A stretch of 64,000 nt of DNA from Candidatus Iainarchaeum sp. (GTDB lineage Archaea; B1Sed10-29; WALL01). Shown here piece by piece: positions 59,868-64,000 of the stretch. The DNA lies in assembly GCA_023129115.1 (NCBI GenBank), contig JAGMCR010000012.1:20667-84666 (forward strand), given 5' to 3'. The notes under the pieces were generated by a model. It saw only the letters and a list, made by a program, of their open reading frames with translations. It was not told where the DNA came from and made no database searches. The stretch's first letter is position 1. Each line of letters starts with the position of its first letter. The position numbers and the translations under genes are program-made.

Positions 59868-60083
59868 ATGGCAGAAGAATACGGGGGCGTCCCCGCAGAG
59901 GTCAAGGAAGTCATTGGCCGGACTGGAGTCTATGGCGAAATCCACCAGGTCATGGCCAAGGTACTCGACGGGCGCGACAAAGGCAGGGTCATGAGGCGGA
60001 ACGTCAAGGGCCCGATTAAGGCCGGCGACATACTCATACTCATGGACACCAAGACAGAGGCAAAGCCAATCCGCGCGAGGTGA
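59868..60083 (+). CDS. rps28e: 30S ribosomal protein S28e
   Basis: GRTG, RNVKGP. Confidence 0.93.
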
Positions 60084-60493
60084 TTAGAGTGAAGTGCAAC
60101 TTTTGCGGGACCGACATGGCAAAGGGCATAGGAATACTCCACGCCTACAGGGACGGGACAGTCTACTCCTTCTGCTCTCGCAAGTGCGAGACCAACATGC
60201 TGAAGCTCAAGCGCAAGCCCCAGAAAGTCAAGTGGACCGCGAGGTACCACGAGGAAAAGGCCATCCGCATGCACGGCAAGGAAAAGAAGGAAAAGGCCGT
60301 GAAGAAGGAACAGGTGAAGGCCAAGACCACAAGGGCGGAGCGCAAGGCCAAGCGCGAGGAAAAGAAAAAGGCAATCAAGGCCAAGAAGAAAGCCATGAGG
60401 AAGGGCGCGAAGCCCAAGAAGGCCGAGAAAAAAGCCGGGGTGTCCGCGCCGAAGGCGGCGACACCCCAAAAGGCAAAGAAGGGGGCGGAATAA
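60080..60493 (+). CDS. rpl24e: 50S ribosomal protein L24e with Lys-rich tail
   Basis: CNFCG, FCSRKC, KWT. Confidence 0.92.
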
Positions 60494-60958
60494 GTGCAGC
60501 GCACCTTCGTCATGCTGAAGCCCGACGTAATGAACCGCGGGCTCATTGGGAAAGTGGTCGCTCGGTTCGAGGACAAAGGCCTCAAGCCCGTTGGCATGAA
60601 GATGCTGCGGCTCGACGACGAGACGCTCAAGGTGCATTACGCGCACCTCGCGGACAAGCCGTTTTTCCCGGGGATTGTTGAGTTCATGAAGCGCTCGCCC
60701 GTGGTTGCAACGGTGTGGGAGGGCAAGGAAGCAATTGAGGTCGGGAGGAAGCTCTGCGGCGTGACCAACGCCCGCGAGGCGGCACCCGGGACAATCCGCG
60801 GGGACTACTCGATGAGCATCCAGGCGAATCTTGTCCATGCCAGTGACTCGGAAGAGATGGCGAGGCAAGAAATAGCCAGGTTTTTCACGGACAGCGAGCT
60901 CTTCGGGTGGGAAAGCGCGCTGGTGGCCTACCAGTACTCAAAGGACGAGGTGGAGTAA
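60494..60958 (+). CDS. ndk: Nucleoside diphosphate kinase
   Basis: MLKPD, PGTIRGDY, NLVHASDS. Confidence 0.95.
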   Translation: MQRTFVMLKPDVMNRGLIGKVVARFEDKGLKPVGMKMLRLDDETLKVHYAHLADKPFFPGIVEFMKRSPVVATVWEGKEAIEVGRKLCGVTNAREAAPGTIRGDYSMSIQANLVHASDSEEMARQEIARFFTDSELFGWESALVAYQYSKDEVE

Positions 60959-61205
60959 CCTCTTCCCACGGCTAAAGTCGTGGGCTTTCAGGTGGTTGAA
61001 ATTCGTTATCTAACGTTCCCTCGCGGGAAGCGTCCACAAGAAAGCCTTGCGGAAGGCTCATACTCAGCCAAGGGCATTGGCACGCAGTGCCTCTTGAGCC
61101 CGTTGGCGTCATTGTTAAGCGCAAAGGTCGGGTTACCCTTGCTCTGGGAAACTCCAGAGACGACCTGCCCACGGGAAAACTGGGCTAAGCCCGCTCCCAT
61201 GGCAA
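60955..61205 (-). ncRNA. Putative omega/reRNA-like structured RNA
   Basis: Minus-strand TTTTTAAG box at 61229-61236, multiple stems, internal GTAACC complementary to terminal GGTTAC. Confidence 0.45.
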
Positions 61206-61318
61206 CAAAACATTTACGCCACCCCGGGCTTAAAAACCATTCGGCTACAGGTTGCCGAGAGAACAGGAGGGAGGCTCAATCCCCCCCACGGCCAAAACCG
61301 TGGGTCTCCTTGAGCCAG
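60955..61318 (-). mobile_element. Non-autonomous IS200/IS605-family element (no transposase or TnpB ORF)
   Basis: Subterminal hairpins CCCACGG-CTAAA-GTCGTGGG and CCCACGG-CCAAAA-CCGTGGG at both ends; no TSD; removal restores the ndk/adk ATGA overlap. Confidence 0.8.
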
Positions 61319-61323
61319 ATTAA

Positions 61324-61968
61324 ATGAAGACGCGCCTCGTTTTCCTGGGCCCGCCCGGGGCAGGGAAAGGGACTTACGCGTCCAGGGTCAGCATCAAGCT
61401 GGGAATCACCCACATATCCGCCGGCCAACTCTTGCGCAACGCAGTAAAGCATGGCACAGCCCTTGGGCTGAAGGCAAAGGCATACATGGACGAGGGAGAG
61501 CTTGTGCCCAACGAAATTGTTGTCAGCCTAATGAAGGAAAGGCTGGCGCAGCCCGACGCAGCCAAAGGGTTTATTCTGGACGGTTTCCCAAGAACCCTCG
61601 GCCAGGCAGAAGCGCTTGGGGGGATTGTGGGGATTGAGCTCGTGATAAACTTTACTGCTCCTGAAGACATCATCGTGAAGAGGCTTGGCACGCGGGAGAC
61701 ATGCAGGAAGTGCGGATGGATCTACAACACGATTACCTTGAAGCCGAAGGTTCCTGGCGTGTGCGACAAGTGTGGTGGAGAATTGTACCAGCGCGAGGAC
61801 GAGAAGCCTGAAGTCGTCCGGGAAAGGTTCCGCGTCTACAACGAAAAGAGCAAGCCATTGATTGACTACTACCGGGACAAGGGGCTGCTCATCGAGCTGG
61901 CGAGCGAGAAAGGCGACGAGCCGCCAGAAGCAATGGTCGAAAAAGTGCTTCAGGCGCTGAAAGCTTAG
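61324..61968 (+). CDS. adk: Adenylate kinase (bacterial-type with Zn LID)
   Basis: GPPGAGKGT, LDGFPRT, CRKC..CDKC. Confidence 0.93.
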   Translation: MKTRLVFLGPPGAGKGTYASRVSIKLGITHISAGQLLRNAVKHGTALGLKAKAYMDEGELVPNEIVVSLMKERLAQPDAAKGFILDGFPRTLGQAEALGGIVGIELVINFTAPEDIIVKRLGTRETCRKCGWIYNTITLKPKVPGVCDKCGGELYQREDEKPEVVRERFRVYNEKSKPLIDYYRDKGLLIELASEKGDEPPEAMVEKVLQALKA

Positions 61969-62075
61969 GAAAACCCTGGGGGCCCTCCCCTGTTCTTTGC
62001 GTGACCGCATCATTTATAAACGTGTGATGGCTTTTACGTGCCAACAAAAGTATTGTCGCGTGGAGGCTACGGTTT

Positions 62076-63065
62076 ATGACGAACAGCTCGCTAAATTATT
62101 CTGCTTCAAATGTTAAAGTGCCAACAGGCATTCCGGGGCTGGACGAAATGTGCGGGGGCGGCGTGTTCGAGTCCAGCACCACGCTCATCACCGGCCCGAG
62201 CGGCACGGGCAAGACAACATTTTGCATGCACTTCGTGAAAGAGGGTCTCAAGAACGGTGAGAGAGCGCTCTTCATCAGCTTCGAGGAAAGCCGCGCCCAG
62301 TTGCTGAGGGACGCGATGGTGTTCTCGTGGGGCCTTGAAGAGTACGAGCAAAAGGGCCTGCTCACATTCGTCTGCAAGTACCCTGAGGGCGCGTTCCTTG
62401 ACGAGCACTTGAGCGAGTTCAAGAAGATACTGAAGACGTTCAAGCCCAAGAGACTCGTGATTGACTCCATCTCAAGCCTGCAGTCATCTTTCACGGAAAA
62501 GGAGCTGGGCAAGTTCTCCAAGAAAATACTCTCGCTGCTCAAGGAAGAGGGGATTACCTCATTCCTGACCACAGCGACTGTTGGCCTCATGTCGACTGAG
62601 ATGCTGTCAGAATCCCACCTCTCGATTTTCACTGATAACATCCTCCTTTTGAAGTACGTCGAAACAGGGGGGGCGCTGAGCACAGTTGTCTCCGTGATAA
62701 AGACGCGTGGGAGCCACCACGACAACAAGCTCCGCACGTACGAGATAACTCCTGACGGCGTCGTGCTGGGCGGGGCGCTCTCCGCTTACGAGGGCATCAT
62801 GGCGGGCGCCACTAGAAAGGTGGGGCCCACAACACAGGAGACGCTCAAGGAAGAGTTCGTGCGCACGCTTGGACCCATGGGGGAGATAGAGTTCTATAAG
62901 CTCGCGCGGAAAACCCTCTCGCGCAAGGGGATAACTAAATACATCGATTCCCTGCTATCCGATGGAATACTCAAGAAAGCAAAGGCAAAGAAGTTCAAGG
63001 AAAACTGTGTTTCAATCCTTATGGAGGACCACGCGGAGCCCTTCATCGCCACCGGCGGAGAGTGA
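62076..63065 (+). CDS. KaiC/RAD55-like ATPase with helical C-terminal extension
   Basis: PTGIPGLD, GPSGTGKT, SFEES, IDSIS, KTRGS.H. Confidence 0.88.
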   Translation: MTNSSLNYSASNVKVPTGIPGLDEMCGGGVFESSTTLITGPSGTGKTTFCMHFVKEGLKNGERALFISFEESRAQLLRDAMVFSWGLEEYEQKGLLTFVCKYPEGAFLDEHLSEFKKILKTFKPKRLVIDSISSLQSSFTEKELGKFSKKILSLLKEEGITSFLTTATVGLMSTEMLSESHLSIFTDNILLLKYVETGGALSTVVSVIKTRGSHHDNKLRTYEITPDGVVLGGALSAYEGIMAGATRKVGPTTQETLKEEFVRTLGPMGEIEFYKLARKTLSRKGITKYIDSLLSDGILKKAKAKKFKENCVSILMEDHAEPFIATGGE

Positions 63066-63840: not shown

Positions 63841-64000
63841 GTGAACTACCCGGCCCTGAAGGGCCGGGCGTCATGAACTAAGATGCAAACTCTATCAGTT
63901 TTCGCTGTGCCCCGTTTTTCTTTGAGGTGGTCCAGTGCTTGTCTTGTGACTGCGCCACGTAGTGGCGCACTGTCTCCGAGTTCACTGCCCCCACGCTGCG
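63841..64000 (-). mobile_element. End of a second IS200/IS605-family element (continues beyond the window)
   Basis: GTGAACTACCCGGCCCTGAAGGGCCGGG terminal motif (minus strand ...GGGTAGTTCAC). Confidence 0.65.

Follow-up and report, generated by a model that had tools for sequence, protein, structure and literature searches.

A gene-less IS200/IS605-type element between ndk and adk of a small-genome archaeon: a candidate guide-RNA cassette

In a stretch of 64,000 nucleotides of Candidatus Iainarchaeum sp. (the window hereafter, in whose coordinates positions are given), the genes ndk (60494-60958, plus strand) and adk (61324-61968, plus strand) flank approximately 370 bp of hairpin-ended non-coding DNA, and this locus raises the question of what such DNA is and whether it still has a function. 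As to the first part of the question, a preliminary description of the window had proposed an IS200/IS605-type element devoid of an open reading frame (ORF) and oriented along the minus strand, and both proposals have been upheld. The three longest internal ORFs have no match in Pfam at E<=1, and a phmmer search with a 64-aa minus-strand ORF against 1.84 billion representative sequences recovered only four long repeat proteins, none of them TnpB (three of the four contain Flg_new repeats, and the fourth shows only weak, sub-threshold matches). Matches to DNA upstream of tnpB genes, detailed below, place tnpB on the minus strand of the element. The feature is an ORF-less element of the IS200/IS605 type, on the minus strand between ndk and adk, of the kind for which the name palindrome-associated transposable element, or PATE, is in use. 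As to the second part of the question, the reading that we tentatively prefer, while placing it slightly below an even chance (around 0.45), is that this PATE still works as a promoter-driven guide-RNA cassette of a tnpB-only clade, with TnpB supplied from elsewhere. The window belongs to a genome assembly of 1.25 Mb in 19 contigs, 88.6% complete (G000), whose contigs are denoted C3, C13 and so on, and whose tnpB loci are denoted T1 to T4; G001, G026, G077, G095, and G140 are labels for other genomes compared.

The limits of the element could be read from a second copy, found by a search of the same assembly at C13:157900-158273, in the opposite orientation, with the same ends and with 95% identity (349 of 369 positions). 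Because this copy has the same ends, the element is more than a chance occurrence. When aligned along with their flanks, both copies measure 369 bp between the shared limits and differ at 20 positions. The similarity begins at 60955 (GTAACC on the plus strand) and extends, on the other side, to a shared ATGAA, and the flanks of the two copies are unrelated apart from TTCAT. In addition, T3-like TnpB elements were gathered from nine other archaeal genomes and their ends were read, the total of 13 left ends being represented by the two gene-less copies, T1-T4, four elements from G077, and one each from G140, G095, and G026. All 13 are directly preceded by T[T/A/G]CAT (TTCAT in 10, ATCAT in 2, and TGCAT in 1), including every one of the 11 tnpB elements with homologous left ends. 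Based on the shared limits of the copies and on these homologous left ends, the element spans 60955-61323 (369 bp, minus strand), with the left end at 61323, on the adk side, and the right end at 60955, on the ndk side, and its target, or transposon-adjacent motif (TAM), is TTCAT, which lies outside the element, in the flanking DNA, at 61324-61328 (minus strand), and which corresponds on the plus strand to the adk start, ATGAA. The left end given previously was 5 bp short, and the deletion of 363 bp based on it was rejected; the copies agree up to 61323, next to TTCAT. TTTAAT as the target was rejected: TTAAT lies inside the left end, since the left end of the G140 element starts with CTTAATTGGGCAAGGAG, matching TTAATCTGGCTCAAGGAG of the window, and it is TTCAT, at 61328-61324, that flanks both copies. 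Comparison to 18 loci, 58 kb in total, gave the G026 element as the best match on the left (80% over 41 nt, E=3.6e-5) and one of the G077 elements as the best match on the right (86% over 28 nt, E=0.002).

Subterminal hairpins had been noted at both ends, and both are confirmed, with stems intact in both copies. The left one, CCCACGG/CCGTGGG (61285-61304, minus strand), lies 19 nt inside the left boundary, its stem being kept in the two copies and its loop and flanks being different, and the right one, CCCACG/CGTGGG (60965-60984, minus strand), is preceded by GAAAGC and resembles a tnpB right end from G077. The right end reads, on the minus strand, ...CCGTGGGAAGAGGTTAC and finishes at 60955, as was described before, where the terminal GGTTAC (60955-60960, minus strand) makes up the tip and also provides the 3' strand for the pseudoknot considered below. 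In elements of the IS608 type, 19-20 nt separate the left hairpin from the cleavage site on its side, and cleavage on the right takes place 10 nt past the right hairpin, and we take the geometry of the ends described here to fit this type of family. The hallmarks of PATEs can be recognized as follows: palindromes near both ends without terminal inverted repeats (the same stem sequence is present on the same strand), a left end placed beside a short conserved target that is not duplicated, a relationship of both ends to full-length tnpB/tnpA elements (G026, T2, T3, and T1 for the left end, G077 and G026 for the right end), and no transposase or nuclease gene by Pfam and phmmer. Within the assembly, the specific hairpin of the element is confined to its two copies (4 real of 23 loose matches). 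At least 120 contigs of metagenomes contain the hairpin core, GAAAGCC-NACGNCTTTAGNCGTGGG, with brines, sediments, and digesters among their habitats, and in most of the contigs listed it is located 12-17 nt behind TTAC, apparently in the left-end context of other IS200/IS605 elements. Judging from these contigs, the transposase-recognition hairpin is far more widespread than this element.

Removal of 60955-61323 gives an empty site of ...GAGGTGGA|ATGAAGACG (GTGGA|ATGAAG; ...GAC GAG GTG GA|A TGA AGA CG), 5 bp different from the GAGGTGGAGATTAAATGA that had been proposed. In this reconstruction, ndk ends in ...DEVE-TGA (GAA TGA), in an ATGA overlap with the ATG of adk, and the claim of such an overlap still holds after the correction. 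Likewise borne out is the claim that the present ndk stop codon comes from the element, namely from the plus-strand GTAA of its right-end tip, and the insertion leaves the ndk protein unchanged, with GAG TAA in place of GAA TGA. The right-end tip of the clade reads GTAA on the opposite strand (GTAACC, GTAAAC), and it can give a TAA stop to an incoming gene. Genome G001, which is of the same genus, has ndk next to adk with a 5-nt gap and no element between them, and three genomes belonging to the same family show an overlap of the adk ATG with the TGA that terminates the upstream gene (GGAATGAAG, CAATGAAG). These junctions fit the reconstructed empty site, while not representing an allelic one. 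The contigs of three DNA runs, all from one cold-seep study, contain neither a joint across the element nor an empty-site allele, and they break at the repeat boundaries. The would-be guide, TCCACCTCGTCC... (60935-60954, minus strand), was identified before as the right-end flank, antisense to the 3' end of ndk, and this holds by position, from the way TnpB omega-RNAs are built, the guide being antisense to the last ndk codons.

The placement of the left end follows a pattern across the clade. In 12 of the 13 elements, the CAT of the target reads, on the opposite strand, as the ATG of a host ORF open for at least 102 codons. These 12 left ends thus adjoin a start codon, so that element and host gene are arranged head to head; T3, with its truncated left end, is the exception. 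No published statement on start-codon abutment for such elements was found in a narrow, literal search of the literature. Another observation concerns a plus-strand frame of 115 codons (60980-61327 in the window; L002 1502-1849, minus strand, for the second copy) that runs through nearly the whole element in both copies and ends in a TGA overlapping the ATG of the downstream gene. The 18 base changes in this frame result in 9 amino-acid differences between the copies, and the protein is not conserved, while the frame might hand ribosomes on to adk.

Is there a promoter from which a guide RNA could be made? When searched with short words by blastn against the 1.25-Mb genome, the left part of the element matches DNA upstream of tnpB in T2, T3, and T1 (E=0.002, 0.03, and 0.11, respectively), and the same matches against the 58-kb locus set have E values of 1.3e-4, 0.002, and 0.005. 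The shared block consists of TCGGC-N8-GCCGA, a few bases, and a TATA-like box, followed by the ATG of tnpB after 23-32 nt. In the element, the inverted repeat (61241-61258, minus strand) is positioned directly upstream of the TATA-like box TTTTTAAG (61229-61236, minus strand) and is identical in both copies; it is also present before tnpB in T2, T3, and T4, with variants in T1. The box had been recognized previously at this position and on this strand, and its identity is now confirmed through alignment with the TTTAAATA boxes located 23-32 nt before the tnpB ATG in three resident elements, T1-T3. Because of this alignment, TTTTTAAG can be considered a homologue of the tnpB promoter box, and the adk-side end the left end of the element. 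Degenerate versions of TCGGC-N8-GCCGA can also be seen before TATA-like boxes at three ordinary loci of the assembly, C18:51745, C14:54925, and C5:35366 (a gene resembling helicases, the region ahead of a tRNA-like sequence, and a small ORF), and these may represent binding sites for a regulator, or else remnants of left ends reused as promoters. Four bacterial matches to the left-end/promoter repeat, from a scan of genome contigs, were judged to be due to chance.

Downstream of this box, a predicted transcribed and structured region (the scaffold) would span 60955-61210 (minus strand), with its start at about 61210 estimated from the TATA spacing. The fold of this region against shuffled sequence has z=-3.45 on the minus strand, but also -2.56 on the plus strand. 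The stems named in the preliminary description (AGGTCG/CGACCT, CTCTGG/CCAGAG, AGCCTT/AAGGCT, and TTCCC/GGGAA) are all present in the sequence, the last three also in the minimum-free-energy fold. The first of these, stem 1 (61125-61166, minus strand), is formed by AGGTCG at 61166-61161 and CGACCT at 61130-61125, and it encloses an extra hairpin, CTCTGG/CCAGAG, along with the 5' strand of the pseudoknot, GTAACC (61131-61136, minus strand), which makes up the last six bases of the stem-1 loop and is complementary to the terminal GGTTAC. The pairing of the internal GTAACC with the terminal GGTTAC had been suggested from the element itself, and it turns out to be a conserved and covarying feature of related tnpB elements. 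The exact complement of the terminal hexamer is present upstream in six of six sequences from the assembly, and it is of four types (GTAACC, GTAAAC, ATAAAC, and GTCAAC), the pairs being GTAACC..GGTTAC in both gene-less copies, GTAAAC..GTTTAC in T3, ATAAAC..GTTTAT in T4, which represents a compensatory double change, and GTCAAC..GTTGAC in T1 and T2. An adjacent enclosing stem of 6 bp is found in four of the six (AGGTCG/CGACCT in the gene-less copies, AGGTGC/GCACCT in T3, and GGGTGT/GCACTC in T4), its 3' strand directly following the hexamer at the end of the loop, and a 5-bp stem, GGCTG/CAGCC, can be seen by eye in T1 and T2. The same arrangement as that of stem 1, with compensatory changes, is found in T3, T4, G095, and G026. 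In 5000 shuffles, the hexamer alone occurs at approximately 5-7%, and the hexamer along with the 6-bp stem at approximately 1% per element.

The arrangement was further followed in an alignment of eight tnpB-linked 3' regions (T3, T4, three from G077, and one each from G140, G095, and G026). With stem 1, the pseudoknot pairing, the middle hairpin, and the right-end hairpin considered together, 91.9% of the cells are paired, versus 35-51% with slid partners, 12 of 25 pairs are changed on both sides, and 0 of 500 shuffles reach the observed value; the pseudoknot helix itself varies in T4 only among these eight RNAs. Short sequence blocks are also shared: TTGCG follows stem 1 in the gene-less element, T3, and T4 (CTGCG in G095 and G026), and GAAAGCC precedes the right-end hairpin in both the gene-less element and its relatives. 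Thus, of the properties by which omega-RNAs are recognized, a scaffold that abuts the right end and uses the flank as a guide is seen here by position only, and a pseudoknot next to stem 1 is seen on sequence evidence, covarying through T1-T4 and six elements of other genomes. From these comparisons, we conclude that the interior of the element probably derives from an omega-RNA of the clade, and that it is divergent but keeps the core. A pseudoknot scan of metagenomes did not discriminate, with 11 of 103 distinct hairpin-core loci positive versus 16 of 100 in the control; the combination of the stem and the hexamer was seen in hand-picked loci only (L078, L083, L099, and L132), and these are not counted as a test.

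The differences between the two copies are unevenly distributed, with 18 of the 20 falling within the first 125 nt, as compared to 2 within the remaining 244 nt (Fisher ~1e-7, for a cut chosen after looking). Positions 45-96, which carry the inverted repeat and the TATA box, are 100% identical, and the differences are found in the left-end tip, in the loop and the flanks of the hairpin, and in the spacer that separates the TATA box from the expected transcription start. Such a pattern is what a promoter-driven RNA gene under selection would look like.

If a guide RNA is made, are there proteins to use it? It had been suggested to search the genome for tnpA and tnpB genes, and the outcome was positive for the latter and negative for the former. 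Four loci matching PF07282 (TnpB zinc-ribbon) are present, three of them intact: T1 (C13:134132-135208, minus strand; 359 aa), T3 (C3:9682-10878; 399 aa), and T4 (C3:101403-102599; 399 aa). The fourth, T2 (C3:78806-79907), which starts at 78806, has one frameshift approximately 85 codons in. The three intact genes carry both PF07282 and PF01385, the RuvC D/E/D motifs are in place in the proteins by reading of the translations, and T[T/A]CAT is the target common to their elements. In T3, the left end is without the 5' half of the hairpin (C3:9600-9700), and this loss, along with the frameshift in T2, points to a decay of the family in this genome. The right end of yet another, fifth tnpB-type element is found at 63841-64000 (minus strand), cut by the end of the contig at 64000. 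It has a hairpin, CCCGGCCC..GGGCCGGG, followed by TAGTTCAC, and an internal GTGAAC at 63985-63980 is complementary to its terminal GTTCAC; the tnpB gene of this element is missing from the assembly. As the assembly is incomplete and this fifth element is cut at the contig end, a cognate nuclease or transposase could be located outside of view.

In the scenario that we prefer, the element would descend from a tnpB-only (IS1341-type) insertion sequence, belonging to a clade with the resident T3 and T4 and other archaeal elements, and would have inserted directly 3' of TTCAT, the reverse complement of the adk ATGAA, splitting the overlapping stop of ndk and start of adk, with the ndk stop restored by the element's own end. 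The tnpB frame would have been lost, while both ends, the left one including its hairpin, would have been kept along with the promoter of tnpB and the omega-RNA core, composed of stem 1, the pseudoknot, and the hairpin of the right end. A minus-strand RNA of approximately 255 nt would most likely be produced from this promoter, its 3' end extending into the ndk flank, and a TnpB encoded elsewhere in the genome could load this RNA and, acting in trans, cut the vacated TTCAT plus flank after excision, thus favoring retention of the element.

A number of observations weigh against such a scenario. The near-identity of the copies, including at unpaired positions, exceeds what selection alone would produce, and patchy recombination is an equal candidate to explain it; for the RNA part, the near-identity could also result from gene conversion or from a mosaic origin. 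Comparison to omega-RNA models, suggested earlier as a check, gave no significant score: with a covariance model (R1), built from the eight tnpB-linked RNAs and excluding the pseudoknot, the window copy reaches 9.4 bits (E=4.8), the right end being placed correctly and stem 1 wrongly, and the C13 copy is recovered as a fragment (8.4 bits), and Rfam at E<=10 gives only chance-level matches, none of them relevant, in the region 60000-62500. Scaffold similarity to the 3' ends of the resident tnpB elements is also not significant (z<=1.5 for Smith-Waterman comparisons between the 3'-terminal 250 nt of the element and the 3'-terminal 350 nt of T1-T4; T1 versus T3 have z=5 in the same comparison). 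The scaffold is approximately 100 nt longer than those of its relatives, due to the hairpin in the stem-1 loop and larger middle hairpins, the hairpins of the element differ from those of T1-T4, and no resident tnpB element possesses its hairpins or its scaffold. Because of these differences in scaffold length and hairpins, no resident TnpB is established as the cognate one. A Y1 transposase, TnpA (PF01797), by which a PATE would be mobilized in trans, was not found in the 88.6%-complete assembly. A DNA search with the whole element of 60 relatives and of a 31-genome set for the phylum revealed no relative beyond the two copies, and a metagenome scan for the exact pattern of the right-end tip produced 0 matches. 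Finally, the sequencing runs containing this region are three DNA runs from a single cold-seep study, and no RNA run is listed.

Many of these observations would also be expected of an inert relic, that is, of a deletion derivative of tnpB that has inherited its promoter and its fold, is used by no protein, has no transposase, and persists at a harmless site, and this explanation is quite plausible, if noticeably short of even odds. The lack of a TnpA in the assembly, the insignificant scores for the scaffold and the covariance model, the presence of two copies only, and the signs of an ongoing decay of the family in T2 and T3 all agree with it, and deletions of the core that result in PATEs are reported to be common in Haloquadratum (PMC3119063). 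What an inert relic does not readily explain is that the promoter core and the RNA region are spared when the two copies are compared, 18 of their 20 differences being located in the first 125 nt, and that stem 1, the pseudoknot, and the stems of both terminal hairpins are all intact.

Improbable, in our opinion, is co-option of the element as a regulatory insert, by providing either an antisense promoter into the 3' end of ndk or an outward promoter, or a translational bridge, for the gene abutting its left end (adk). Such a role would agree with the position of the left ends at start codons in 12 of the 13 clade elements, with the 115-codon frame that is open in both copies and terminates on the ATGA overlap, and with the A/T-rich loops of the left hairpin (TTTAAAAA, ATTAAAA, TATAAG), at about -26 to -35 from the ATG, that can be noticed by eye in about 5 of 12 elements. 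However, the loop in the window copy, CCAAAAC, would make a poor TATA box, the protein sequence of the 115-codon frame varies between the copies as described above, and start codons are among the few TTCAT sites that tolerate insertions in a gene-dense genome, which is a simple account of the abutment. The same open frames could be imagined to encode a small protein, of 64 or 66 aa on the minus strand or of 115 aa on the plus strand, and they are open in both copies, but given the Pfam and phmmer results for the internal ORFs and given that the changes in the plus-strand frame are mostly non-synonymous, we consider this very improbable. FALNNDANG was also considered as a potential remnant of RuvC-III (compare to FVANADRVG in T3) and was rejected, as a by-eye match without statistical support.

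The idea of a PATE omega-RNA used in trans is already in print, and the guide-RNA cassette proposed here would be a further example, with its anatomy corrected. PATEs have been described in Haloquadratum walsbyi, where some keep a non-coding remnant of the C-terminal/3' region of tnpB (Dyall-Smith et al., 2011; PMC3119063). Like those described in that report, the element in question is archaeal, has neither terminal inverted repeats nor a duplicated target, shows palindromes close to its ends, is too short to encode a transposase, and has ends related to those of IS605-type (tnpB) elements, with an origin by loss of the core. It differs by its host lineage and by its two copies, as opposed to hundreds, and the report on Haloquadratum predates the recognition of the guide-RNA function. 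A more recent preprint states that PATEs often encode omega-RNAs, which need the TnpB of other elements in trans, and it lists TTCAT as the TAM for the IscB of ISGst5 from Geobacillus stearothermophilus (Meers et al., 2023; 10.1101/2023.03.14.532601). With the PATE-like elements of G. stearothermophilus, the element shares the IS200/IS605 type, the lack of genes, and the need of any omega-RNA for a TnpB in trans, while being different in its archaeal host, its TATA-box promoter, and its tnpB-only clade, and in being known here from sequence alone (10.1101/2023.03.14.532601). In the solved complex of ISDra2, the omega-RNA has a pseudoknot in which nucleotides -5 to -3, ahead of the guide, are paired with nucleotides -103 to -105, next to stem 1 (Nakagawa et al., 2023; PMC10097598). 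The predicted scaffold is the same in kind, ending at the right end, with the guide taken from the flank and the pseudoknot next to stem 1, but it has no sequence similarity to that of ISDra2, it is approximately 215-255 nt long as compared to 116 nt, and it has no protein partner in cis (PMC10097598). Another parallel is presented by the sotRNAs of archaeal IS1341-type tnpB genes, non-coding RNAs at the 3' ends of tnpB elements (Gomes-Filho et al., 2015; PMC4615843). These likewise correspond to the 3' end of an archaeal tnpB-type element, as does the non-coding RNA predicted here, but sotRNAs overlap an intact tnpB, and here the gene is gone (PMC4615843).

What the locus offers, in terms of significance, is a well-delimited gene-less derivative of an IS200/IS605 element that, in an archaeon with a small genome, keeps a guide-RNA promoter and a pseudoknot core. 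Should the RNA be produced and put to use, it would show that in Archaea, as in Bacteria, guide and nuclease of these transposons can exist separately. The locus also provides a compact natural variant of the scaffold, and a TTCAT-type target, for this TnpB clade. The placement at start codons of 12 of the 13 elements may also bear on how transposons persist where almost the entire genome is coding. A broader model can be envisaged, though we consider it rather unlikely as a whole, in which the clade is specialized on gene junctions in genomes almost without spare DNA: its elements would land on start codons via T[T/A]CAT, the left end, with a hairpin loop that is often TATA-like, would become the upstream region of the host gene, the right-end tip could restore a stop codon to the gene on the other side, and gene-less copies would live on as promoter-driven guide-RNA cassettes served in trans by TnpB. 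A look-alike of the left-end hairpin, with 6 differences over 40 nt to positions 61275-61314 of the window, is present on a 268-nt contig of another organism, in one cold-seep run, and it is likewise followed by ...ATGAA.

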